The translations under genes were made by a program, and so were the position numbers. Under the pieces are notes generated by a model. That model was not told the origin of the DNA. It was given only the letters and a program-made list of their open reading frames with translations, and did no database searches. Below, piece after piece: positions 1-14,187 of a stretch of DNA of 59,684 bases. The DNA is taken from the NCBI GenBank assembly GCA_028717885.1, contig JAQUMX010000007.1:1-59684 (forward strand), written 5' to 3'. How positions within the stretch are numbered: the stretch's first letter is position 1; every line of letters starts with the position of its first letter. The DNA comes from Candidatus Omnitrophota bacterium (GTDB taxonomy: Bacteria; Omnitrophota; Gorgyraeia; Gygaellales; Profunditerraquicolaceae).

Positions 1-893
<893 letters not shown>

Positions 894-1341: not shown

Positions 1342-2547
1342 CTACTTAGAAATCAGCTGCGTAATCTTAAAGATCGGCAGGAACAGTGAGATTACGATTC
1401 CGCCGATGATAATACCCAGGAAAGAGATAACCAAAGGCTCGATCATGCTGGTTAGGCCGGAAACCGCGGCATCCACCTGGTCATCGTAGAAATCGGCTAT
1501 TTTGGTAAGCATTTTTTCCAACTGCCCGGTCTGCTCTCCTACGCTGATCATCCTGGTAACCATAGGAGGAAAAACTCCGCTCTTAGCTAACGGCGCAGAG
1601 ATCCTTTCGCCTTCGCGCACCGAAGTACGGCAATCCGAGATCGCTTGCTCAACTACCTTATTCCCGGCAGTCTTGGAAACAATATCCAGGGCGCTTAATA
1701 CCGAAACGCCACTCTTAACTAACGTAGAAAATGTCCGGGAAAATTTTGCTACTGCCACTTTACGGAAAAGCGGCCCTAAAATCGGCGCTTTCAATTTCTG
1801 CCCGTCAAACTGCATCTTCCCTTTTGGAGTATTGATATATTTCTTAAAAAGAAAACCTCCTGCAACGAAAACGCCTACCACCGGCAGGAAGAAATGTTTT
1901 AAGACATCGCTGATGCCAATCAATATGCGGGTAGGCAAAGGCAGCTCTCCTCCCAACATATCAAAGATCCCTTTAAATGTAGGTACGACTTTCAGCAGCA
2001 GAACCGCAGTAATCAAAAGCGACATGGAAACTACTACTGCGGGGTAAATCAGGCTGGAGGTAACTTTTCGGGTCAATGCTGCGGTTTTTTCCAGGTAAGT
2101 TGCCAACCTATCCAAAACCTCATCCAACATACCCGAAGCTTCTCCTGCCTGCGTCATATTGATAAAAAGATCGGAGAATACCGCCGGATGCTTGGCTAAA
2201 GCATCGGAAAAACTCAAACCGGCTTCGATATCTTTACGTGCGGCAGCTACCACTGCCTGAAGGTTTTTATTTTCGATCTGTTCGCTCAAAATCCCCAATG
2301 CCTGAACCACCGGAATACCTGCATCGATCATGGTGGCTAATTGCCGGGAAAAAATTACCAGGTCATCGAGTTTAACCTTGCCTCCGGCTTTTCCTTTTGC
2401 CGCAGCTTGTTTCTTAGCCTGCTTGACTGCCAAAATAATCAATTCTTTCTTATGCAAAGACTCGGTAACTTCCGCTTCGCTGTTTACTTCCAGCGTGCCG
2501 GTTACGGTTTGGCCGTTCCTGTCTTTAGCAGTATATTGGAAGATCAT
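1342..2547 (-). CDS. pilC: Type IV pilus inner-membrane platform protein PilC (GspF family)
   Basis: FSRQLATMIDAG, AGEASGMLDEVL and GEQTGQLEKML motifs; two GspF repeats with three TM helices. Confidence 0.95.
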   Translation of the reverse strand: MIFQYTAKDRNGQTVTGTLEVNSEAEVTESLHKKELIILAVKQAKKQAAAKGKAGGKVKLDDLVIFSRQLATMIDAGIPVVQALGILSEQIENKNLQAVVAAARKDIEAGLSFSDALAKHPAVFSDLFINMTQAGEASGMLDEVLDRLATYLEKTAALTRKVTSSLIYPAVVVSMSLLITAVLLLKVVPTFKGIFDMLGGELPLPTRILIGISDVLKHFFLPVVGVFVAGGFLFKKYINTPKGKMQFDGQKLKAPILGPLFRKVAVAKFSRTFSTLVKSGVSVLSALDIVSKTAGNKVVEQAISDCRTSVREGERISAPLAKSGVFPPMVTRMISVGEQTGQLEKMLTKIADFYDDQVDAAVSGLTSMIEPLVISFLGIIIGGIVISLFLPIFKITQLISK

Positions 2548-3617
2548 ATTTTATCCACAATCCTCAAGAAACATTCCACTACTTTGGGATCAAACTGCGT
2601 TCCGTTGTGTTTTTCGATTTCCCTGACAGCCGCTTCTTTGGTTAAAGGGATTTTTCGATAAGAACGCGCCGAGGTCATCGCTTCGTACGCATCTGCCAGA
2701 TGAATGATCCTGGCGCCTAAAGAAATCTCCTCTCCTTTTAAGCCATCAGGGTATCCCGAACCGTCAAAATGTTCATGATGCTGACGGATTAATTCTATCA
2801 CGCCATGCAGAAAAGTCAACGGCTCCAAAATCTGCGCTCCAGTCAAAGGATGCCGCTTCATCAGCTCCCATTCTTCCTTGTTTAATTCCGCAGGTTTGAT
2901 CAAAATATTATCTTGGATGCCGATTTTGCCCAAATCATGCAATTCACAGGCTTCCCGGATTAGCTCGATATCCTTGGCAGAAAGATGCATCTCTTCGGAA
3001 ATAAGCGTAGCGTATTTCGCGACATTCTGCGAATGGCTGTGCGTATAATGATCCCGGGCGTCGATTGCCTGGGCGAGTGCGCGGATCGTGCGCATATAAG
3101 TAGAGCGCAGGTCTTCGTAAAGCCGGGTTAAATTTTTCGTCGAGTCTTCGATGCGTTTAGCCAAAAGCGTATTCTGTTTTTGCAGGGACAAATTCTGTTC
3201 TCTGATACTATGCTGCAGCTTACGGTGCGCCAAAGACATCGTATGCAGGTCAATCCCTTTCTTCACTAAAAAATCCAATTTCCTGTCATCGATCGGCAAA
3301 CTGATAAAATCATAGATTCCTAACTGGAGGTTAGTTTTAATCAACACCGGGTCGTCCTGCTCGATTAAAGCGATAATCACCACGTCGGGATCGACTTTGC
3401 GTAATTGCGCCACGGTTTCCGCCGCATCAAAATAAGGCATATCTAACTTAATAATTACCAAATCAAAAGCAGTGGTTTTGAAAGTTTCGATTCCTGCCGG
3501 GCCGTTATGCTCCGCAAAGAAAGAAATACTGGCTTGCCCTTGCGCAGCCATCTTTGCCTTTAAATAAGTGGTAATTTCGCTGTTATTGTTAATCAGTAAA
3601 ATTTTCGGATCTGCCAT
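2544..3617 (-). CDS. Pseudo-receiver + coiled coil + HD-GYP cyclic-dinucleotide phosphodiesterase
   Basis: HS..V, LHDLGKI, HHEHFDGSGYP, AD..RSYR. The N-terminal REC-like fold lacks the acidic pocket and the phospho-Asp. Confidence 0.9.
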   Translation of the reverse strand: MADPKILLINNNSEITTYLKAKMAAQGQASISFFAEHNGPAGIETFKTTAFDLVIIKLDMPYFDAAETVAQLRKVDPDVVIIALIEQDDPVLIKTNLQLGIYDFISLPIDDRKLDFLVKKGIDLHTMSLAHRKLQHSIREQNLSLQKQNTLLAKRIEDSTKNLTRLYEDLRSTYMRTIRALAQAIDARDHYTHSHSQNVAKYATLISEEMHLSAKDIELIREACELHDLGKIGIQDNILIKPAELNKEEWELMKRHPLTGAQILEPLTFLHGVIELIRQHHEHFDGSGYPDGLKGEEISLGARIIHLADAYEAMTSARSYRKIPLTKEAAVREIEKHNGTQFDPKVVECFLRIVDKI

Positions 3618-3641
3618 AGTTGTTCTCCCCTTAAGTTGTAA

Positions 3642-5345
3642 TTATTCCTCGGTAGTTATCCTTAAGGCTTCGTCGAGAGAAGTTAGCCCATCTTTCACCT
3701 TTAGAAAAGCATCGTCCCTTAAGGTGCGCATGCCGCGTTTTTCGATTGCGTATTTTTTGATATCGTCGATGGATTTCTTGCGCATCACCAGGTCGCGGAT
3801 CTCATCATCAATCATAATTACTTCCAGGATTGCGATTCTTCCGTAAAAACCTGTATTATTGCAATAGGAACAGCCTTGCGCGGTATAAAATTTTGTTTTT
3901 TCCTTAAAACCGATTTTCTGCAAGAAATCAGGGCTGATCTCCGTAGGTTTCCTGCATTTCAGGCAAAGTTTGCGCGCCAACCTCTGGGCGCAGAGCATAA
4001 TCAGGCTCGACGCCACTAAAAACGGCTCAACCCCCATATCGATCAGGCGCGTAACACTGGAAATAGCATCATTAGTATGCAATGTAGATAATACTACCTG
4101 GCCGGTCAATGCCGCTTTTACCGCAATATCCGCGGTTTCTGCGTCCCTGATTTCTCCGATAAGAATGACATCCGGGCTCTGGCGCAGCAAGGAACGCAGC
4201 CCCGAAGAAAAATCCAGGCCGATATCCGGCCTTGCCTGCACCTGGGTAATACCTTCGATCTGGTATTCTACCGGGTCTTCAATAGTAATGATATTTCGTT
4301 CCGGAGTATTAAGCTGGTTTAAAACTGAGTACAAAGTGGTGGATTTTCCTGATCCCGTTGGGCCTGTAACCAGGATCATGCCAAATGGCTTTGCCACCGC
4401 TTCTTTAAAAACCCTCTTTGGCTCGTCGGAAAAACCCAGCTGCTCCAATCCGATCGAAAGGTTTGATTTATCCAGCAAACGCAAAACGAACTTTTGCCCG
4501 AAAGTCGTAGGCAAAGCAGAAACGCGAAAATCCACTTCCTTGTTTTCGAACTTCACTTTAAACCTGCCATCCTGCGGCAGCCGGTTTTCCGTAATATCCA
4601 AATTAGAGATAATTTTTAACCTCGCCAACACTGCATTCTGGTTTTTCTTCGGCAGTTTCAAAATATCATGCAGAGAGCCGTCAATGCGGTACCTGACCCG
4701 CAAACAATCCTCTTCCGGCTCGATATGGATATCCGAAGCCCGCTTTTTAAGCGCCTGGGTAAGCATTAACTCTACAATCTTGATAATCGGAGGCTTTTCG
4801 CTTTCTTTAATCGCACTGGAAAGCTCGATCTCCTCGGGCTTAATTCTCTGCGTATCATCAGAACCTTGCCCTTCGCCGCTCTCATCCAGGATCTGTTGAA
4901 TATCCTTGGTATCTTGGTGATACTGGGTTTCAATCATATGCATGATTTCTGTTTCCGAGCTTAAAACCGTATCTATATTGCATCCGGTAAGTGTCTTTAA
5001 ATCATCGAGCGCAAAAATATTCAAAGGGTCCGACATTGCTACGGTCAGGGTGTTGCCGATACGCGAAAGCGGAATAATTGAATATTGCTTGGCAAGGCGC
5101 TCCGGGATAAGGCTTAAGATTTCCGGGTCGAATTTATATTTTGCCAGATGTAAAGTCGGGATAAACAGCTCCTCGGAAAGGAGCGACAAAAGCTGATCCT
5201 CGGTAATTAATTTCTGCTGGATGAGGATTTTACGCAAAGGCGCTTGCTTGGCTTTCTGCGCCTCGATAGCCTTATCCAGCTGCTCTTTGCTCAGCTGTTT
5301 ACTCTTGATCAAGATTTCGACAATACTTTCTCTTAAACTATGCAT
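3642..5345 (-). CDS. pilB: Type IV pilus assembly ATPase PilB/GspE, paralog 2
   Basis: Walker A GPTGSGKST, Walker B ILIGEIRD, STLHT, tetracysteine CLKC..CSYC. Confidence 0.92.
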   Translation of the reverse strand: MHSLRESIVEILIKSKQLSKEQLDKAIEAQKAKQAPLRKILIQQKLITEDQLLSLLSEELFIPTLHLAKYKFDPEILSLIPERLAKQYSIIPLSRIGNTLTVAMSDPLNIFALDDLKTLTGCNIDTVLSSETEIMHMIETQYHQDTKDIQQILDESGEGQGSDDTQRIKPEEIELSSAIKESEKPPIIKIVELMLTQALKKRASDIHIEPEEDCLRVRYRIDGSLHDILKLPKKNQNAVLARLKIISNLDITENRLPQDGRFKVKFENKEVDFRVSALPTTFGQKFVLRLLDKSNLSIGLEQLGFSDEPKRVFKEAVAKPFGMILVTGPTGSGKSTTLYSVLNQLNTPERNIITIEDPVEYQIEGITQVQARPDIGLDFSSGLRSLLRQSPDVILIGEIRDAETADIAVKAALTGQVVLSTLHTNDAISSVTRLIDMGVEPFLVASSLIMLCAQRLARKLCLKCRKPTEISPDFLQKIGFKEKTKFYTAQGCSYCNNTGFYGRIAILEVIMIDDEIRDLVMRKKSIDDIKKYAIEKRGMRTLRDDAFLKVKDGLTSLDEALRITTEE

Positions 5346-5348
5346 GGA

Positions 5349-7055
5349 TTATTCGTCGGGAGCGGTGACGCGCACCACTTCTTCCAAAGTAGTCAAGCCT
5401 TTCAGCGCCGCTGCCACTCCATCCTCTCTTAAAGTATGCATACCTTCCTGCCTTGCTTGCTCTTTGATCAAATGCTCCTGCGCGCGGGACAAAATAAGTT
5501 CCCTGATCTTTGGCGTTAAAACCAGCATTTCCGCAATCCCCACCCTACCGCTGTAACCGGAATTAAAACACTGCGGGCAGCCTTTGCCTTTAAAGAACTG
5601 CGTTTGTGAAATGCCTAATTTAAGGTTTTGTGCTACTTCTTTATCCAAGGTATATTTTTCTTTACAGTGGTCGCAGATTTTTCTTACCAAACGTTGCGCC
5701 ACCACACAAATCAGGGAAGAATTAATCAAAAAAGGCTCGACCCCCATGTTTACCAAACGCACGATTGCACCCTGCGCAGTAGTGGTATGTAAAGTAGATA
5801 ATACCAAATGCCCGGTTAAAGCGCTTTTAATGGCAATATCCACGGTTTCAAAATCGCGGATTTCTCCGATCATGATTACATTCGGGTCCTGCCTTAAAAT
5901 AGAGCGCAAAGCGCTGGCAAAGGTAAGGCCAATGTCAGGCTTAATCGTCACCTGATTGATCCCTTCCAGCTGGAATTCAACCGGATCCTCAACGGTAACG
6001 ATATTTTTTTCCGGGTTATCGACAAATTTCAACACCGAATAAAGCGTGGTTGTCTTTCCTGCGCCGGTTGGCCCGCAAACCAAAATCATCCCGTGAGGCA
6101 TTATGGATAATTTTTTTAATTTAGCGACAAACTCCGAATTAAAACCTAACTTCTCGATATCGAGCATTGCCTGGGTCTTATCCAGAATACGAATCGCAAC
6201 TTTCTCTCCGAAGCTTGAAGGCAAAATAGAAACGCGAAAATCGATTTCCCTGCCGAAAAGGTGCGCCTTGAACCTGCCGTCTTGCGGAAGGCGGTGCTCG
6301 GCAATATCCAAATCCGACATGACCTTGATCCTGGAAATAATCATCGGGTGCATTGCCTTGGGAGGGGCGGTCTGCTCCTGTAAAATACCGTCAAGGCGGA
6401 AACGGATCCTTAATTTCTTTTCCAAAGGCTCAATCAGGATATCGGATGATTTCTTTTTTACCCCTTCCTGCACGATCATATTGGTAATTTTGATTACCGG
6501 CGCATCCCAGCTGGAACGGCCCAATTCCTGGTCGCTGGGCAGAGTTTCCCTTTCTTCCTTAATCAATTCGATGGAAGTTGCCGCCATCTCCCGCACCAGG
6601 TTATCGATGACCCCGCCGGTAGCATCGGGATAGTACAATTCTATAGTCTGGTTAATATCCTTGCTGGAAGAAATTATCGGATTGATTTTATAACCGGTAA
6701 ATAACTGCACATGGTCAATGGCAAAAATATTCAACGGGTCAGCCATGGCAAGGGTGATAGTGTCACCCATCTTAGAGATAGGCACGATCTGATAGTGGTG
6801 GGCAATATCGATTGGAATAGTCTTTACTACTTCGGGATCGACCTTGAAGCGTTTTAAATCGATCAGAGGAAAACCTAGGCCCTGGCTCAGCGCGGAAATT
6901 AAATCCTTCTCCTCGATGAATTTCAGCTCTACGATAATATCGCTAAGCCTGCCGCCTTTTTTCTTCTGCTCCTCCAGGGCCTGATGCAACTGATCCTGGG
7001 TAAGCAGTTTATTATTGATTAGGATTTCCGTAAGGCGGTCTTTTAGTGAAAACAT
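5349..7055 (-). CDS. pilB: Type IV pilus assembly ATPase PilB/GspE, paralog 1
   Basis: Walker A GPTGAGKTT, IMIGEIRD, HLVLSTLHT, CDHC..CPQC; MshEN-like N-terminus. Confidence 0.92.
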   Translation of the reverse strand: MFSLKDRLTEILINNKLLTQDQLHQALEEQKKKGGRLSDIIVELKFIEEKDLISALSQGLGFPLIDLKRFKVDPEVVKTIPIDIAHHYQIVPISKMGDTITLAMADPLNIFAIDHVQLFTGYKINPIISSSKDINQTIELYYPDATGGVIDNLVREMAATSIELIKEERETLPSDQELGRSSWDAPVIKITNMIVQEGVKKKSSDILIEPLEKKLRIRFRLDGILQEQTAPPKAMHPMIISRIKVMSDLDIAEHRLPQDGRFKAHLFGREIDFRVSILPSSFGEKVAIRILDKTQAMLDIEKLGFNSEFVAKLKKLSIMPHGMILVCGPTGAGKTTTLYSVLKFVDNPEKNIVTVEDPVEFQLEGINQVTIKPDIGLTFASALRSILRQDPNVIMIGEIRDFETVDIAIKSALTGHLVLSTLHTTTAQGAIVRLVNMGVEPFLINSSLICVVAQRLVRKICDHCKEKYTLDKEVAQNLKLGISQTQFFKGKGCPQCFNSGYSGRVGIAEMLVLTPKIRELILSRAQEHLIKEQARQEGMHTLREDGVAAALKGLTTLEEVVRVTAPDE

Positions 7056-7060
7056 TTTTT

Positions 7061-7109
7061 CAGCTATCAGCTATCAGCTATCAGCTATCAGCTATCAGCT
7101 GAAAGCTAA
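7061..7109. repeat. Heptamer tandem repeat (CAGCTAT)x5 plus 2 variants
   Basis: cagctat x5, cagctga, aagctaa fill the gap before the pilB start. Confidence 0.97.
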
Positions 7110-7113
7110 TTCT

Positions 7114-7563
7114 TTATTCCTTCTCCTTATAATATTTCTGAATTGCTCTTTTTACGTCCGAAGAAGTTGAAACAAAGGTCTGAACAGTGCAACCGGTAGT
7201 CATCTCCACATCTTCAATTGCCTGCACATTCAGTGGGTTTGACATTGCTATCGTAAGGTTATTGCCGATTTTATCGATCGGGATCAAAAGGAATTGTTTG
7301 GCTACCCTACCGGGGATAAGGCCGATTACCTCGGGATTGATTTCATAATTGGCTAACGGCAAATAAGGAAAACCGTATTGGGCGGTGAGTGCCTGGGCAA
7401 TATCTTCTTCCTTGCAGAAGCCCAGCTCAACCAAAACTTCTCCGATCAGTCCACCTTTCTCCTTCTGGTTGGCAAGGCCCTTCTCCAACTGCTGCTCATT
7501 AATGATCCCCCATTCTAAGAGCAGCTCGCCTAATTGCTTATTGGTATTCCTTCTGATCGGCAT
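7114..7563 (-). CDS. Stand-alone MshEN / GspE N-terminal domain protein (probable c-di-GMP receptor)
   Basis: QLGELLLEWGIINEQQLEKGLANQ and LIGEVLVELGF match the tandem MshEN motif; no ATPase domain. Confidence 0.85.
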   Translation of the reverse strand: MPIRRNTNKQLGELLLEWGIINEQQLEKGLANQKEKGGLIGEVLVELGFCKEEDIAQALTAQYGFPYLPLANYEINPEVIGLIPGRVAKQFLLIPIDKIGNNLTIAMSNPLNVQAIEDVEMTTGCTVQTFVSTSSDVKRAIQKYYKEKE

Positions 7564-7579
7564 AATATTTTACCGGCGC

Positions 7580-9001
7580 TTAAACTGCAATCCGGTTTTT
7601 TCCTTGTTGTTTTGCATGGTTAGCCCGGTCTTTTGCCCGCGCGACTAATTCTTCTGCCTCGACGCCATCGAGCGGATTTTCGCTTACACCGCCGCTGCAG
7701 GTAATCTTCTTATTGTTATCCTGCTCTTCGGAAAAAACAAACTCGATCTTTTTTCTGATTTCCTCGGCAATAGTCTGCGCCTGCCTTTTATTTTTTTCCG
7801 GAAGGACAATAGCAAATTCATTGTCTCCGATCCTTCCTACGCGGTCGATTTCCGTCACAGATTCCCTGATGATTGCCGCTACTCTTTTTAAGGCCGCCTC
7901 GGTTTGCAGCGACCCGAAATTATCGTGGAATTTACGGAAGTTATCCAAATTAAGCAAAACATAGGCACAAGGCCTTTGGTAAGTAATTGCGCGCTTGATC
8001 TCTTCCTGCAGGCGGTTATGAATGAAAGTCTCGTTATAAAGCCCGGTTAAGGCATCCTTGATTTCCAGCTTTTCGATCCTATGCAACAGAAGATCGTTCT
8101 CGACGGCAATGGCGATTTGCTTGGCAAAAACATCAAGTAGCTCGATGTCGTCTTTCATAAAATTAAATTGCTCTTTGATATTGCCCACGCCCAAAAGCCC
8201 GACTAACCTGCCGCGTAAATAAATCGGCAAGGCTAAAACATTCCTTAAGCGGAATTGTTCAAGAAATAGGCTTTTCACATTTTCCGGTTGCGGATTATCT
8301 TTATCCAGGATTAGGGGCCTGCCTGTCTTAGCCAGTTTAGAAAGCATAGCTTCTTCAAATTCCGCTTCCAGCTTATAAAGATGCTGGGCATTCGGCCCGT
8401 CGGCAATCTTGGTATGAAAAACCGCTTTGTTCTCGTCCCGGAAGAGCAAAAATGCCAGGTCGGAATTTGCGATAAAGCGTGATTTCTCTACGGTAAGCTT
8501 AAGGATTTCTTCCAGTTTTGCGCTTTGCGTAATCAGGGAACTGATTTGCAGCAGGCTGGAAAGCACCAAGATGCGCTTTTGAATTTCCAGGTTGATTTCG
8601 GTAGTTTTTTCGCTGTAGTTCTTAAGCTCATCCATATTATTACGGATGCGATTAGTCAGCTGGTTTAAAGCATCACCTAAATCACCCACCTCATCTTCGC
8701 GCTCGATATCGAGTTTACGGGTAATGTCTCCGGCGGCAATCATTTTTGCTTCCGTAGATACGGAAAGGATCCGGTCAAAGACTTGCTTTATCACAAAAAA
8801 CCCCAGGAAAGCGACAAAAAAACTTATTCCCAGGGTAGCCATGACTTCGAAACGCAAGCCAAAACGCGGCAGGATATAATTTGAAACCAAGTAGACCGAA
8901 ACCAATAACGGCAATACTGCCATCAAATACAATGCCAACCTTAATTTATATTTTAAACCCCGGGACGCAAAGGAGACTCTCTTACTGCTCTGTTTTTTCA
9001 T
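7580..9001 (-). CDS. Membrane HAMP-GAF-GGDEF protein with degenerate active site
   Basis: Two TM helices, HAMP (DEVGDLGDALNQL), GAF, DALTGLYN; signature reads RIGDNEF. Confidence 0.88.
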   Translation of the reverse strand: MKKQSSKRVSFASRGLKYKLRLALYLMAVLPLLVSVYLVSNYILPRFGLRFEVMATLGISFFVAFLGFFVIKQVFDRILSVSTEAKMIAAGDITRKLDIEREDEVGDLGDALNQLTNRIRNNMDELKNYSEKTTEINLEIQKRILVLSSLLQISSLITQSAKLEEILKLTVEKSRFIANSDLAFLLFRDENKAVFHTKIADGPNAQHLYKLEAEFEEAMLSKLAKTGRPLILDKDNPQPENVKSLFLEQFRLRNVLALPIYLRGRLVGLLGVGNIKEQFNFMKDDIELLDVFAKQIAIAVENDLLLHRIEKLEIKDALTGLYNETFIHNRLQEEIKRAITYQRPCAYVLLNLDNFRKFHDNFGSLQTEAALKRVAAIIRESVTEIDRVGRIGDNEFAIVLPEKNKRQAQTIAEEIRKKIEFVFSEEQDNNKKITCSGGVSENPLDGVEAEELVARAKDRANHAKQQGKNRIAV

Positions 9002-9015
9002 CTTCTTCTCCCCTT

Positions 9016-9147
9016 AATAAGCACATGACTTACGAACACGTAAGCGCGAGTAAGTCATTGTGCGAATTAATCCCCACGCCAATTTGCGTGGGGACAAATT
9101 CAGCCACAGGCTTACGTTCACTTTGTTCCGTAAGCCTAGGCTTTATT
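9016..9147. repeat. Multi-hairpin element, copy A (H1-H2-H3)
   Basis: TGACTTAC/GTAAGTCA, TCCCCACGC/GCGTGGGGA and AGGCTTACG/CGTAAGCCT, closed by AATAA/TTATT; homologous to copies at 18446, 51691 and 57156. Confidence 0.85.
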
Positions 9148-9150
9148 CGA

Positions 9151-9179
9151 ATTATATTACTTATTTGTTTTTTATGCAA
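9151..9179 (-). promoter_or_regulatory. Probable promoter of the GGDEF-MshEN-pilB-pilB-HD-GYP-pilC operon
   Basis: TTGCAT-17 bp-TAATAT on the minus strand; predicted start near 9144. Confidence 0.55.
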
Positions 9180-10917
9180 TGCTTTTATTATAATCATTAA
9201 GCAGGGCCTCTTTACTGACGCCGGAATCGATAAAATCCCAAGCCAATAATTCATTTTTTGATTTTTCTTTTAAAAAATCCTCTGGGGCGATTCCCGCCTC
9301 TTGAAAAGCTTCCATCCAGCGCGCAAAATTAAAATGTTCCTGCCAGCCGTCAAAACGCGCCCCCTTGCGAAAAGCTGATTCGATAACCTGGCTTAACCTG
9401 CGGTCGCCTCTGGCTATTACCCCCTCCAAGAAACTCGTTTCTGCATTATGGAAACTCAATTTTATTTTTTTATTCCGGTTGAGCTTGCGCAAGTATCCCT
9501 GCTTTTCTTTGATTTGCTCTATGCCTTCCATCCCGAACCATTGAAAAGCAGTGTGCGGCTTGGGGATCAAAGCATTTACACTTATATTTACCTGGGCATT
9601 AAACCCGCTTGTTTTTTTTCTTAACTGCGAAGCGTTATTGGCAAAATCCAAAATACTGCCTAAATCATCTTTTTCTTCTTTTGGCAGGCCGATCATAAAA
9701 TATAACTTCAAATGCTGATACCCTGCCTGATAAGCCTGTTCCAGGACGCGCAAAAACTCCGGAATATCAAAATCCTTATTCAGGACTTTGCGTAATTTTT
9801 CCGACGCTGCCTCAGGAGCAAAGGTTAAGCCGGTTTTTTTTATTTTAGAAATTAAAGACGCTAACTCTCCTACCATTTCACGCGGTTTTATCGAAGGCAA
9901 AGACACGCTTACCTTTTTTCCTTCGAACAAGGAAATTAAATTCCCCAGGATTTCTTTGATTTGCGGATGATCGCTGGCAGATAAACCGACGAGAGAAATT
10001 TCTTCATAGCCGGTATTTTGGTAAAGCTTGCAGGCTAAATCAGAGACTGCTTCCGTTTTTCTGATGCGAAACGGGGAATACAATGTGCGCGCCTGGCAAA
10101 AACGGCACTGATTAGGGCAGCCGCGCATAATTTCCAGGATCAGGCGGTCATGCACGACCTGGATAAAAGGAACCAGCCAATCCAAAGGAAAATATGACTG
10201 GTTAAGGTCTTTAACAGAGCGCTTCTTAACCACTGCTTTTAAATTGGCGTACTTTGGCTTAAATTCTTTTTGCTTGCCTTCCTGATCAAAAGAAACTGTA
10301 TAGAGCGAAGGCGCATAAACTCCTTCTATGCCGCAAAATTTTAAGAGAAATTCTTCTTTAGAGATTTTTCCCGCCTTAAAATCAGCGGCGTGGATTTTAT
10401 AAAGGCCGACGATTTCCTGAAGCGCTTCTTCAGCTTCTCCAATTACAAAGATGTCGATAAATTCATGCATTGGCTCCGGATTGAGCACACACGGCCCACC
10501 GGCAATCACTAAGGGAAAACTTGCATCGCGTAATGCGCTTTTTAAAGGAATGCCTCCCAGGTCCAAAAGATTCAAAACGTTAGTATAACTTAATTCATAT
10601 CCCAAAGAAAAGCCCACAAGATCGAATTCGCGCAAAGTTTTTTTAGACTCTAAGGAAAATAACTGGAGCTTGCCGCTACGCAACAACCCCTCCATGTCGA
10701 TAGCAGGAGAAAAGAATCTTTCACAAACAACCTGCGGCATTTGATTGAGAATGCCGTAGAGGATGCGGATTCCCAAATTACTCATCCCTACTTCATACAG
10801 GTCGGGAAAACAAAGCGCGAATTTTACCTCTGCCGCGTTAAAATCCTTATGCGAAATATTCCATTCTTCGCCGATATAGCGCGCCGGCTTTAATATTTGT
10901 AAAAGATAATCATCCAT
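9172..10917 (-). CDS. Radical SAM protein with B12-binding-like N-terminus (TIGR03960-like)
   Basis: FPDLYEVGMS N-terminus, CPNQCRFC motif, typical position after rodA; ATG overlaps the rodA TGA. Confidence 0.85.
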   Translation of the reverse strand: MDDYLLQILKPARYIGEEWNISHKDFNAAEVKFALCFPDLYEVGMSNLGIRILYGILNQMPQVVCERFFSPAIDMEGLLRSGKLQLFSLESKKTLREFDLVGFSLGYELSYTNVLNLLDLGGIPLKSALRDASFPLVIAGGPCVLNPEPMHEFIDIFVIGEAEEALQEIVGLYKIHAADFKAGKISKEEFLLKFCGIEGVYAPSLYTVSFDQEGKQKEFKPKYANLKAVVKKRSVKDLNQSYFPLDWLVPFIQVVHDRLILEIMRGCPNQCRFCQARTLYSPFRIRKTEAVSDLACKLYQNTGYEEISLVGLSASDHPQIKEILGNLISLFEGKKVSVSLPSIKPREMVGELASLISKIKKTGLTFAPEAASEKLRKVLNKDFDIPEFLRVLEQAYQAGYQHLKLYFMIGLPKEEKDDLGSILDFANNASQLRKKTSGFNAQVNISVNALIPKPHTAFQWFGMEGIEQIKEKQGYLRKLNRNKKIKLSFHNAETSFLEGVIARGDRRLSQVIESAFRKGARFDGWQEHFNFARWMEAFQEAGIAPEDFLKEKSKNELLAWDFIDSGVSKEALLNDYNKSIA

Positions 10918-12020
10918 CAAAATACCGACCTTTTCTTGGCGATATTCGCCAATATTCCTAATGCAATAAAAGTAGTAAATACCGATGATCCGCCGTAACT
11001 CATTAAAGGAAGCGGAATCCCCACCACCGGAGCCAACCCCAAATTCATGGCAATGTTAATAAAGACCTGTAAGCCCAACATAAGAGAAATCCCGAAAGCA
11101 AGCAGCCTGCCAAAATAATCGTGCGTATCCAAACCGATACGTATCCCCTCCCTGACTAAAGCACAGTATAATAATATCAGCGCGGAACTTCCGATTAATC
11201 CCCATTGCTCGGCAAAAGTAGCGAAGATAAAGTCCGTGTGTGATTCCGGCAAAAAATGCAATTGGCTCTGCGTGCCGGCAAGCCAGCCTTTTCCGAAAAT
11301 ACCCCCTGAACCAATGGCAATTTTTGATTGGATTACCGTATAGCCTGCGCCCAAAGGATCGACATTGGGGTTTAAAAATACCATTAGCCGGTCTTTCTGA
11401 TAGTCGTGCAAAAAATTCCAGAACAGCGGTAGCGAAATAAGCGCTATCGCCGCCAAGATCATGACATATTTCAATTTTATCCCCGCTAAATAAAGCATCG
11501 TGAGAAAAATCAATAAAACGACTATGGCGCTGCCTAAGTCAGGCTGCTCGATAATCAGCCCCATGGGAATAGCTACAAAAATAAACGGTAGGACGAATGC
11601 GCGTAGAATCCCGAATTTCGTCATCAGCAGAGAAACATCCCCGGAAGATTTTTTGCTGAAATATTTTGCCAAAAAAATTACCATCACGATCTTTGCCAAC
11701 TCAGTGGGCTGAAAATTAAACCAGCCAAACCTTAACCAGCGCTGCGCACCCAGCCTGATAGCCCCAAGCACAAAAACCAGGAAAAGCAAAAATACCACTA
11801 GCGCGTACAATAAATAAGAAGCGTCCCAAAGCCGGCGGTAATTAAAATTCGCCAGCAGAAAAAATAAAACTAAACCCAGAACCACCCAAAGAATTTGCCT
11901 GCGGTAAACCAGTTGCCAACCCGAGGCTTCCTTCTGATAGGTGCTGCTGTAAATCGACAAAATCCCGATCAAGGCAATTGTTAGTGCAACTATAATGATC
12001 AAAAATCCGCTTGCCTTCAT
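10917..12020 (-). CDS. rodA: Rod shape-determining SEDS protein RodA
   Basis: GAQRW, FQPTELAK, QPDLG, PESHTDFIF, LPLMSYGGSS; follows PBP2. Confidence 0.96.
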   Translation of the reverse strand: MKASGFLIIIVALTIALIGILSIYSSTYQKEASGWQLVYRRQILWVVLGLVLFFLLANFNYRRLWDASYLLYALVVFLLFLVFVLGAIRLGAQRWLRFGWFNFQPTELAKIVMVIFLAKYFSKKSSGDVSLLMTKFGILRAFVLPFIFVAIPMGLIIEQPDLGSAIVVLLIFLTMLYLAGIKLKYVMILAAIALISLPLFWNFLHDYQKDRLMVFLNPNVDPLGAGYTVIQSKIAIGSGGIFGKGWLAGTQSQLHFLPESHTDFIFATFAEQWGLIGSSALILLYCALVREGIRIGLDTHDYFGRLLAFGISLMLGLQVFINIAMNLGLAPVVGIPLPLMSYGGSSVFTTFIALGILANIAKKRSVF

Positions 12021-13732
12021 TAAACCAATCCTTGCTTAGACATTTCTTCGATAATCTGTTTGGCAACCATACAAGCACCATACCCTGAGCCGCCGTTTTC
12101 CAGAAAAACACAAATGGCAAATTTAGGATGATCAAAAGGGAAAAATCCACTAAACCATCCGTGCGGTTGCCCGCGCGTCACCTGAGCTGTTCCGGTTTTA
12201 CCCGCAACCGCCACGCTAAGGCCCGCTAAAACACTCGCCGTCCCCTGAGGATCAGCCACTACTTTTAGCTCTCCTTGCCGGATAGCATTAAGAAACCGCT
12301 CTTTAATCCCCAATGATTTATTCCCTTTTTGATACGCGGTAATATCCTGCCCGGCAATTGACTTGACGATATACGGATTAACTAAAAACCCGCGGTTTGC
12401 GAATACAGAAGCCATGCGTACAATTTGAATGGGTGTTGTCAACAAATCGCCTTGGCCGATGGAAAAATTTGCCGTATCTCCATCGTACCAGATCTGGGAG
12501 CGGGATGCTTTCTTCCAGCGCGGATGCGGTACAAACCCCGAAACTTCATAAGGCAAATCAATACCTGTGGGCTTGGAGAAACCAAACTTTAAAGAGTAAT
12601 CATGGATTAAGGGAGCGCCCAGCAAAATACCGGTGTGATAAAAAAAGACGTCGCAAGAATGGGCAATAGCCTGGATCAAATCCTGCTGGTTATGCGTATC
12701 CCAACACTTAAAATAGCGATTTCCGACCAGCATGCCGCCCGGGCAGTAAAAGCTCGTGCCTAAATTGATTTTACTTGTATCGAGCGCCGCTTCAGCCACT
12801 ACTAATTTAAATACCGAACCCGGAGCATAAGCCCCGGAGATCGCGCGGTTCATCAACACTGAATGAGAATTAGCAAAAATGTCCGCCAAAGAAGAGCCGG
12901 TTTTCTTGACAAAAACTTCCGGATTATACCCCGGCGAACTGGCGAGTGCGAAAATTTCTCCGCTAGCCGGGTCCATAATCACAACACTTCCTTTTCTTTC
13001 TCCAAGGCTACTTTCGGCAATTTTCTGGATCGCTAAATCCAGGGTGAGCTGGATATCTTTTCCGTTTTTTGCCGGCTTAAACCCTAAGGTACGCACAAAT
13101 CTTCCGCGATGGTCAACCTCTACGGAAAGCGCTCCCTCTTCTTCGCGTAAATAATAATCATATTTTTCTTCCACTCCGCCGTAACCGACAATATCCTTCG
13201 GATTATAGCCGTAATCTTGCAGCTTGCTTAGGCGCCACTGGTCAATCTCGCTTAAATAACCGGCTACGTGGCAGGCAAGTTTTCCGTAAGGATAGCTCCT
13301 TACCGGCCGCTGCTGTATCACTACGCCGGGATAATCCATTTTCAATTCTTCAAGAGCGACTGCCTTCTTGATATCGATATTTTTTGCCAAGGTAACCGGA
13401 ATAAAAGGGGCAGAGTAATTCTTACGGTAGGCTTTCTTTAATTCTGCCGGACTAATCCCCAATGTCCGTGCGATAATAGAAATTGCCTGGTCCAGCTCTT
13501 CTTTCTCCTCGGCAAGGACCATCACGTCAAAGGTAAGGTAATTATCTATAATCACCTGATTGTTACGGTCGAGGATCCTTCCCCGGGCACCGGGCTGCGC
13601 AAGTAAACGGATGTGGTTCTTTCGGCTTAGTCGGCTGAATTTATCATATTGTAAAACCTGCAGGTTGAAAAGCCCGCAGAATAAAAGCAGGAAAAGAACG
13701 CCTAAAAAAAATGTCGAGATTTTTATCCTCAT
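12020..13732 (-). CDS. mrdA: Penicillin-binding protein 2
   Basis: RGRILDRN, PGSVFK (SxxK), SCD, KTGTAQ; in mre operon. Confidence 0.95.
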   Translation of the reverse strand: MRIKISTFFLGVLFLLLFCGLFNLQVLQYDKFSRLSRKNHIRLLAQPGARGRILDRNNQVIIDNYLTFDVMVLAEEKEELDQAISIIARTLGISPAELKKAYRKNYSAPFIPVTLAKNIDIKKAVALEELKMDYPGVVIQQRPVRSYPYGKLACHVAGYLSEIDQWRLSKLQDYGYNPKDIVGYGGVEEKYDYYLREEEGALSVEVDHRGRFVRTLGFKPAKNGKDIQLTLDLAIQKIAESSLGERKGSVVIMDPASGEIFALASSPGYNPEVFVKKTGSSLADIFANSHSVLMNRAISGAYAPGSVFKLVVAEAALDTSKINLGTSFYCPGGMLVGNRYFKCWDTHNQQDLIQAIAHSCDVFFYHTGILLGAPLIHDYSLKFGFSKPTGIDLPYEVSGFVPHPRWKKASRSQIWYDGDTANFSIGQGDLLTTPIQIVRMASVFANRGFLVNPYIVKSIAGQDITAYQKGNKSLGIKERFLNAIRQGELKVVADPQGTASVLAGLSVAVAGKTGTAQVTRGQPHGWFSGFFPFDHPKFAICVFLENGGSGYGACMVAKQIIEEMSKQGLV

Positions 13733-14187
13733 CGTAAAACCTTAAAAATCAGAGGCGAAACTAATGCCGTATATAATGATTCAAGAATAATGACCTTTGA
13801 ATATACCCCTAAAGTAAAATAATTCCCTGCGGAAAATTGGAAAAATTTCTTTAATAAATCAATGAGGATAACTGCCAGAAAAATCAATACGGTACGCACA
13901 AGAGTGGTTTCGATGGGGATTTTCTTTGCCAAAAAAAACGTAACCGCCGCAAGAAAAGGAAAATAAAAAATGTGCGCCGCAAAAACTTGCGCGGTAAAAG
14001 CGTCTTTCAAGAACCCAAGCACCAGGCTAAAGAGCAAAGCATGCTTTAATTCAAAAACCAGCCCCACGAAAACTGCACAAATTAGCAACAGGTCAGGCTT
14101 AACGTTAAAAATGCGGAAATAATTTAAGAGGGTAGCCTGAAACAAAGCGAGCAAAACTATTACCAGGTAAAGCGTGCGCTTCTTCAT
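13729..14187 (-). CDS. mreD: Rod shape-determining protein MreD
   Basis: Hydrophobic, KPDLLL and GFLKD motifs, between mreC and mrdA. Confidence 0.88.
   Translation of the reverse strand: MKKRTLYLVIVLLALFQATLLNYFRIFNVKPDLLLICAVFVGLVFELKHALLFSLVLGFLKDAFTAQVFAAHIFYFPFLAAVTFFLAKKIPIETTLVRTVLIFLAVILIDLLKKFFQFSAGNYFTLGVYSKVIILESLYTALVSPLIFKVLR

Follow-up and report, generated by a model that had tools for sequence, protein, structure and literature searches.

The DNA analysed in this work is a stretch of 59,684 nucleotides (the window), which is contig C7 of a genome bin from a Candidatus Omnitrophota bacterium; the bin comprises 1.47 Mb in 66 contigs and is 88% complete. The open reading frame list and Pfam searches identified six close-set genes on the minus strand, running from position 9001 to 1342, which encode proteins of a type IV pilus motor together with proteins carrying domains of cyclic di-GMP (c-di-GMP) signalling. 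In gene order these are:

7580-9001, minus strand: HAMP-GAF-GGDEF protein (Pfam; GGDEF 109.9 bits)
7114-7563, minus strand: free MshEN, a protein of 149 amino acids with MshEN as its sole domain (Pfam PF05157, 70.6 bits)
5349-7055, minus strand: PilB1, MshEN and T2SSE domains (PF00437, 455 bits)
3642-5345, minus strand: PilB2, MshEN and T2SSE domains (PF00437, 451 bits)
2544-3617, minus strand: protein with a pseudo-receiver and an HD-GYP domain (Pfam Response_reg and HD_5/HD)
1342-2547, minus strand: PilC platform protein with two T2SSF repeats (Pfam); its start overlaps the stop of the HD-GYP gene by 4 bp

The intergenic distances, in the same order, are 16, 58, 3 and 24 bp, followed by the 4-bp overlap. 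An earlier interpretation made from the letters and the open reading frames (the sequence-only reading) had described this gene order, with gaps of 58 bp or less, and the open reading frames and Pfam assignments agree with it. It had also stated that the window contains no pilins, PilT or PilMNOPQ, and regular-expression and profile searches of C7 bear this out for pilins, PilT, PilM and the secretin: no pilin motif was detected on the contig with the regular expression, neither secretin nor PilM gave a match, and the only T2SSE matches were PilB1 and PilB2.

PilB1 and PilB2 are, by their conserved motifs, PilB/GspE-type extension ATPases. PilB1 keeps the Walker A and B motifs, the Asp box, the zinc cysteines and the His box, all conserved in 49 orthologues. 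PilB2 keeps Walker A and B, the Asp box and the zinc cysteines, and the first His of its His box is changed to Gln (48 orthologues); the two enzymes may differ in catalytic properties. The PilB2 gene starts in the reading frame of PilB1, 3 bp past the PilB1 stop codon, and in relatives the two genes mostly overlap or lie within about 10 bp of each other. In a phylogenetic tree PilB1 and PilB2 form one clade each. The His box reads GQ..STLHT in nearly all of the 48 PilB2 orthologues and GH..STLHT in PilB1. One 1173-amino-acid frame (G008:C19, locus L077) looked like a PilB1-PilB2 fusion and was considered as a Rosetta-stone sign of a mixed hexamer, but its junction is a run of N and the fusion was discarded as an artefact.

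The c-di-GMP motifs of the free MshEN and of the two ATPases

The PF05157 score of the free MshEN protein lies well above the curated cut-off of 23.1 bits. Its AlphaFold2 (AF2) model, with a predicted local distance difference test (pLDDT) value of 88.9, consists of a four-helix bundle and an alpha/beta C-terminal subdomain. Foldseek matched the model to the GSPII-A domain of PilF (9G1W, TM score 0.87), to MshEN (5HTL, E 7.6e-12), to 8PDK (E 1.4e-9) and also to PilF GSPII-B. In sequence searches the protein matched the N1 domain of Myxococcus xanthus PilB (8e-28), and its best match in the PDB was PilF, with three matching stretches. By itself the free MshEN makes up an entire PilB N1/MshEN domain.

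In MshEN domains two 24-residue motifs make up the c-di-GMP site; the ligand is contacted by the Gly3 backbone and the Gln24 side chain, and Leu clusters stack on its bases (PMC5013675). In the free MshEN motif 1 is QLGELLLEWGIINEQQLEKGLANQ (residues 10-33) and motif 2 is LIGEVLVELGFCKEEDIAQALTAQ (residues 39-62), with KEKGG as the spacer. They conform to the two-motif consensus [RKPN]hGxxhhxx[GAS]hhxxxxhxxxhxx[Q..] with its 5-residue spacer; the deviations are the first residues, Q in motif 1 and L in motif 2, and Cys50 at a hydrophobic position. The absence of Arg from the first positions, which are Q/K and L in the free MshEN, is no obstacle to binding, because GSPII-B of Thermus thermophilus PilF has Lys and Leu there and binds c-di-GMP with a dissociation constant of 6 nM (PMC11731258). 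The free MshEN is the candidate c-di-GMP receptor. An N-cap box that could block the binding site, as in PilF GSPII-A, was also looked for and rejected, the T/S/D...E/Q/D capping box not being conserved in the orthologues.

The N1 domains of the ATPases look different. In PilB1 the position-3 Gly is gone from both motifs (RLT.., RLS..) and the Gln of motif 2 is out of register; in PilB2 both motifs have degenerated (SIV.., PLR..). An alignment of all three kinds of N1 domain, taken from 49 loci across Omnitrophota (48 for PilB2), gave these counts for the ligand-contacting residues:

Free MshEN: Gly3 in 49/49 (motif 1) and 48/49 (motif 2); Gln24 in 47/49 and 48/49
PilB1: Gly3 in 0/49 (motif 1) and 6/49 (motif 2); Gln24 in 42/49 and 0/49
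PilB2: Gly3 in 0/48 (motif 1) and 4/48 (motif 2); Gln24 in 37/48 and 7/48

The mean pairwise identity of the four-helix part is 56% in the free MshEN, 42% in PilB1 and 34% in PilB2, with values of 60-62% for the ATPase cores. These identities indicate that the four-helix part is under more constraint in the free MshEN than in PilB1 or PilB2. Since the three N1 domains have one common fold, Gly3 and Gln24 are dispensable for folding, and that only the free copy strictly retains them argues for selection on ligand binding. The comparison across the loci shows a division of labour, in which a free N1 domain that bears the motifs is inherited together with two PilBs that lack them. That a free MshEN senses the nucleotide in trans, as the sequence-only reading had proposed, is consistent with the free copy being the sole N1 of the three to retain the c-di-GMP-contacting residues, and appears well supported at the level of sequence comparison.

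Conservation of the core and of its variable slots

A free MshEN of about 150 amino acids is present in 49 of 61 relatives. In a wider sample it was found in 195 of 301 Omnitrophota genomes (178 of the 247 high-quality ones), and a large protein database contains 4559 stand-alone homologues. The gene order MshEN-PilB1-PilB2-(variable)-PilC occurs in all 49 loci, usually behind PBP2-RodA-(radical-SAM). MshEN-PilB1-PilB2-PilC is thus the constant core, and the arrangement described earlier from a single contig proved to be conserved.

In 18 good genomes no match to the free MshEN was obtained. Five of these carry a diverged free MshEN before a PilB1-like gene, 11 are without a PilB1 orthologue, one is without any PilB match at the threshold used, and G257 alone has PilB1-PilB2 without a free MshEN. 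The G257 locus (G257:C39, L031), which belongs to the same family as the bin, reads PBP2-RodA-radical-SAM-PilB1-PilB2-HD-GYP, with neither pseudo-cyclase nor free MshEN. Restoration of the PilB motifs where the free MshEN is absent was considered and dropped: it was not seen in G257, and the other such genomes are without the whole module.

The accessory genes are more variable. The HAMP-GAF-GGDEF protein has two predicted transmembrane helices (hydropathy; about residues 20-42 and 51-73) separated by a loop of about 8 residues and followed by HAMP, GAF and GGDEF. The GGDEF domain does not have the motifs of an active cyclase: its signature is GDNEF, DxDxF is replaced by NLDNF and ND by HD. 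At the I-site RxxD is replaced by TEID, and most of the aligned orthologues have no Arg there. The signature is degenerate in the aligned orthologues too, with different forms in different genomes (GDDEF, DDNEF, NSNSF, ADYQF and others). By these motifs the protein is an old, membrane-anchored pseudo-cyclase. A DxD-mediated HD-GYP::GGDEF contact of the Xanthomonas type was rejected for this protein, the DxD not being conserved in the aligned pseudo-cyclases.

The receiver of the HD-GYP protein likewise does not have the phosphorylation motifs. Its acidic pair is NN, the acceptor is K, and L stands at both the conserved Thr/Ser and the conserved Lys positions; in 14 of 14 orthologues the acceptor position is K, A, Q, R or E. 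The HD-GYP motifs are intact here (HDLGK, HHEHFDGSGYP) and are kept in 11 of the 14 orthologues, two of the remainder being altered in HHE..D and one in GYP. The protein is probably an active cyclic-dinucleotide phosphodiesterase. The view that the modules of this locus are largely degenerate therefore holds for the GGDEF, REC and PilB N1 motifs, but not for the free MshEN and the HD-GYP catalytic domain, both of which look intact.

Upstream of the free MshEN the pseudo-cyclase is found in 34 of the 49 loci and is absent from 15, and a PilT-like ATPase is found in 11. The slot between PilB2 and PilC could be compared in 45 loci. It contains the pseudo-REC-HD-GYP gene in 15 (absent from 30) and a second free MshEN in six, one of them with a canonical REC-GGDEF cyclase; 24 loci gave no match to the query set. 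Since the pseudo-cyclase and the HD-GYP protein are optional across loci, they are modulators and not required parts of the mechanism. The sequence-only reading had made the pseudo-cyclase the membrane anchor of a scaffold and the HD-GYP protein its integral nucleotide sink, and neither role can be a required one given these absences. The accessory genes are repeatedly drawn from the c-di-GMP toolkit, and the module is therefore tied to c-di-GMP.

The PilT-like ATPase (354-385 amino acids) lies between the pseudo-cyclase and the free MshEN in loci of other families (L045, L050, L055-L058, L060-L062, L068 and L069). The ancestral locus probably also included a retraction motor. The second free MshEN (about 150 amino acids; L051, L052, L065-L067 and L018) is 38-42% identical to the first, with its Gly and Gln positions intact; in L065 it is accompanied by the canonical REC-GGDEF protein and by a GGDEF-AAA-HEAT protein of 1415 amino acids.

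The remaining parts of the pilus machine are encoded elsewhere in the bin. PilMNOPQ lies at 5371-9484 (pilM at 8444-9484) and pilA at 14949-15422 of contig C16, together with minor pilins, and PilT-like genes are found on C6 and C11. The genome thus contains PilMNOPQ, a major pilin and PilT-like genes, the parts of a type IVa machine, and their link to the motor comes from synteny in relatives. In four genomes of other families (G208, G293, G202 and G265) the genes pilMNOPQ-DUF2344-rng directly follow pilC, which identifies the module as a type IVa pilus motor; DUF2344 and rng also accompany pilMNOPQ on C16. Here pilC is followed by the ribosomal RNA (rRNA) operon in place of pilMNOPQ, and the pilus locus is therefore split. 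Two canonical GGDEF/GGEEF proteins are encoded on C16 beside pilA and pilMNOPQ, and the genome has four further HD-GYP proteins and nine PilZ matches; by its gene content it is able to make and read c-di-GMP. Further PilB-PilC clusters are present on C4 and C17, and the C17 PilB keeps canonical RLG motifs. The C4 cluster (1-25000) is type II secretion-like (PilB/GspE, GspF and pseudopilins) and adjoins an open frame of more than 4100 amino acids that runs past the contig end.

Two other MshEN architectures were encountered. An 881-amino-acid frame (L079 1229-3874, G021:C9) combines MshEN, a weak PilZ match, POTRA and ShlB; this odd combination of cytoplasmic with outer-membrane parts may come from a misplaced start. 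A protein of 1122 amino acids (L078 1966-5334, G063:C34) contains MshEN and a long, probably coiled-coil region.

A proposed mechanism, its alternatives and known systems

As a whole, the observations are best explained by a type IVa motor module whose c-di-GMP input resides on a separate free MshEN, an explanation that we adopt with moderate confidence. PilB1 and PilB2 would be two co-translated extension ATPases on the PilC platform. c-di-GMP, for which the two canonical cyclases on C16 are possible sources, would bind to the free MshEN, and the loaded protein would dock on the N1 tier of PilB1/PilB2, or on PilM/PilC, where it would license or tune pilus extension. The pseudo-REC-HD-GYP protein, acting locally as a phosphodiesterase in particular lineages, may reset the signal, and the HAMP-GAF pseudo-cyclase may serve as a lineage-variable membrane-linked input or docking protein; the core mechanism would run without either of them. 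In a bolder form, which we regard as rather unlikely, the motor would have three parts: PilB1 and PilB2 would be an obligate, c-di-GMP-blind pair, perhaps a mixed hexamer, and the free MshEN a dissociable sensing N1 tier whose ligand state decides whether, or which, ATPase engages the single PilC. If true, the free MshEN would be the first of its kind to act in trans, and the motor the first to need two PilB paralogues.

Several observations weigh against c-di-GMP sensing by the free MshEN. PilF GSPII-A does not bind c-di-GMP even when the consensus is restored, owing to its N-cap and to contacts between its subdomains (PMC12002112); by analogy, a good motif would not by itself guarantee binding. 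It is this non-binding GSPII-A that the AF2 model of the free MshEN resembles most, with helix 1 predicted from residue 7. The turn Gly at position 10 of the motifs is kept in only 33 of 49 and 34 of 49 free MshEN copies. Finally, G257 retains PilB1-PilB2 without a free MshEN, and the motifs of its ATPases are not restored.

Of the alternatives, the one that survives best, although we consider it improbable, assigns to the free MshEN the opposite effect: as a c-di-GMP-controlled N1 mimic it would compete with PilB1 and PilB2 for the PilM/PilC site and inhibit extension. The free protein is indeed a complete N1, including the C-terminal subdomain that bears the partner contacts in homologues, and its motifs are intact. 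The Foldseek matches also included 7LKO, a PilB(N)-PilZ complex, and two weak ones, the EpsE-N/EpsL complex (2BH1) and GspE-GspL (4PHT). However, nothing in the sequences sets the direction of regulation, positive or negative, and strict co-inheritance with the motor fits an activator or an inhibitor alike.

It is quite improbable, in our estimate, that the free MshEN is a nucleotide-blind adaptor, that is, a structural motor subunit whose motifs are conserved because of protein contacts. There is a precedent in PilZ of Xanthomonas and Pseudomonas, a small cofactor that binds PilB N1 and does not bind c-di-GMP (PMC11656802), and the near-consensus motif of PilF GSPII-A, the best structural match of the free MshEN model, fails to bind. 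Yet conservation falls precisely on the c-di-GMP contacts seen in 5HTL and PilF GSPII-B (Gly3 backbone, Leu clusters and Gln24), and c-di-GMP enzymes occur repeatedly in the neighbouring slots.

Still less credence is given to an obligatory scaffold, in which the pseudo-cyclase anchor, the trans-sensing MshEN and an HD-GYP protein that keeps the nucleotide low would all be integral. The three genes do lie in one tight string, both here and in the majority of genomes from this order, and Xanthomonas campestris is known to have HD-GYP-GGDEF-adaptor complexes that control pilus motors (PMC3749722). However, 15/49 loci have no GGDEF protein and 30/45 no HD-GYP protein, and the pseudo-cyclase does not conserve the DxD motif on which the Xanthomonas HD-GYP::GGDEF contact depends. 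Finally, the possibility that the free MshEN is a mere conserved neighbour of PilB1-PilB2 and serves another target, such as the PilB/GspE systems of C4 and C17 or the cell-wall elongation genes, is highly improbable: the genome does have additional PilB-PilC clusters, and PBP2-RodA-radical-SAM genes are conserved neighbours, but the C17 PilB has canonical RLG motifs of its own, and the free MshEN is lost along with PilB1-PilB2 while the C17-type PilB-PilC pair stays.

The proposed c-di-GMP-responsive module can be compared with several known systems. Only two c-di-GMP receptor domains, MshEN and PilZ, are widespread in bacteria (PMC12448109). Vibrio cholerae MshE (5HTL), M. xanthus PilB and Clostridium perfringens PilB2 share with the free MshEN the domain, the fold and the two 24-residue motifs with a 5-residue spacer, and have in common with the locus the output through a pilus extension ATPase. 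In MshE and PilB, however, the ATPase senses c-di-GMP with its own N-terminus; the locus described here encodes the candidate sensor as a distinct polypeptide, and its ATPases have N1 domains without the Gly and Gln contacts. T. thermophilus PilF, with three tandem GSPII domains of which A is non-binding and B and C bind, likewise has several N1 modules per motor, only some of them binding, and its GSPII-B has an Arg-less motif of the K/L type, corresponding to the Q/K and L found in the free MshEN. PilF carries its modules fused in one ATPase chain, whereas the present locus distributes them among three gene products, including two paralogous ATPases.

In the PilB-PilZ-FimX system of Xanthomonas citri and Pseudomonas aeruginosa c-di-GMP is likewise sensed in trans on PilB N1, with degenerate c-di-GMP domains and an unphosphorylatable REC (PMC11656802). 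There the sensor is a degenerate EAL and the adaptor is PilZ, whereas in the present cluster, which has neither EAL nor PilZ, a copy of N1 itself is the candidate sensor. In X. campestris RpfG (REC-HD-GYP) acts with GGDEF proteins and a PilZ adaptor on PilT/PilU through protein contacts that are independent of cyclase activity (PMC3749722). RpfG is phosphorylated by RpfC, in contrast to the receiver described here, which has no Asp, and the Xanthomonas GGDEF partners are active cyclases with DxD, whereas the GGDEF domain here appears dead and the DxD is not conserved. In Escherichia coli, too, MshEN is reported to be the receptor of a local c-di-GMP circuit, whose dedicated enzyme, DgcJ, is encoded close by; there it is fused to NfrB, a glycosyltransferase, and the output is a polysaccharide synthase (PMC8669469).

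Full-text literature searches found no description of a free MshEN accompanied by motif-less PilBs, or of the Omnitrophota layout. To our knowledge, MshEN has so far been encountered as a fused, cis-acting module. If the reading adopted here is correct, the phylum-wide occurrence of a free MshEN with a siteless PilB pair would mean that pilus motors can carry their sensing tier as a detached, exchangeable subunit, and the locus would provide a natural experiment that distinguishes ligand-binding from folding residues. Omnitrophota are uncultured, mostly tiny and probably host-dependent bacteria, for which pili are thought to be important in attachment. Given their small size or their solubility, all of the proteins lend themselves to recombinant binding and interaction tests, so that the idea can be tested without cultivation.

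Transcription of the locus and flanking features

The pilus genes are flanked by the following features:

9002-9171, minus strand: spacer or 5' leader with three strong hairpins (minimum free energy -68.7 kcal/mol for 170 nt)
9151-9179, minus strand: putative sigma-70-type promoter TTGCAT-17-TATAAT (sequence read)
9172-14187, minus strand: genes for radical-SAM (Radical_SAM_N2), RodA, PBP2 and MreD, upstream of the pilus genes (Pfam)
1-893, minus strand: 5' part of a 16S rRNA gene at the contig end (RF00177, 775 bits)

The MreD-PBP2-RodA-(radical-SAM) genes are found directly upstream of the pilus motor genes phylum-wide, an arrangement that links cell-wall elongation genes to the pilus motor.

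A single transcript for the six pilus genes is plausible. The promoter that had been proposed at 9179-9151 was confirmed in part: TTGCAT-17-TATAAT is present, its -35 hexamer overlapping the radical-SAM stop codon, but the site is missing from the promoter scan list because this hexamer matches at just 3 of 6 positions. Promoter-like sites are not enriched in the window (19 found against 16.9 expected from shuffled sequence), and the terminator scan gave no enrichment over shuffled sequence either.

A c-di-GMP riboswitch in the 170-nt leader was ruled out, there being no Rfam match near any gathering score. The third hairpin of 9002-9171 is a dispersed repeat, with blastn copies on C43 (two), C59 and C12, and it resembles an element of the repetitive extragenic palindromic (REP) type. 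The hairpins could be a terminator or stabiliser of the upstream genes and not a 5' leader.

On the other side, a strong, near-consensus promoter-like site with a TG extension is located at 1260-1233, between pilC and the 16S rRNA gene, and this gene with its promoter-like site marks the downstream limit of the operon. The 16S leader contains a 12-bp GC-rich stem at 1115-1088.

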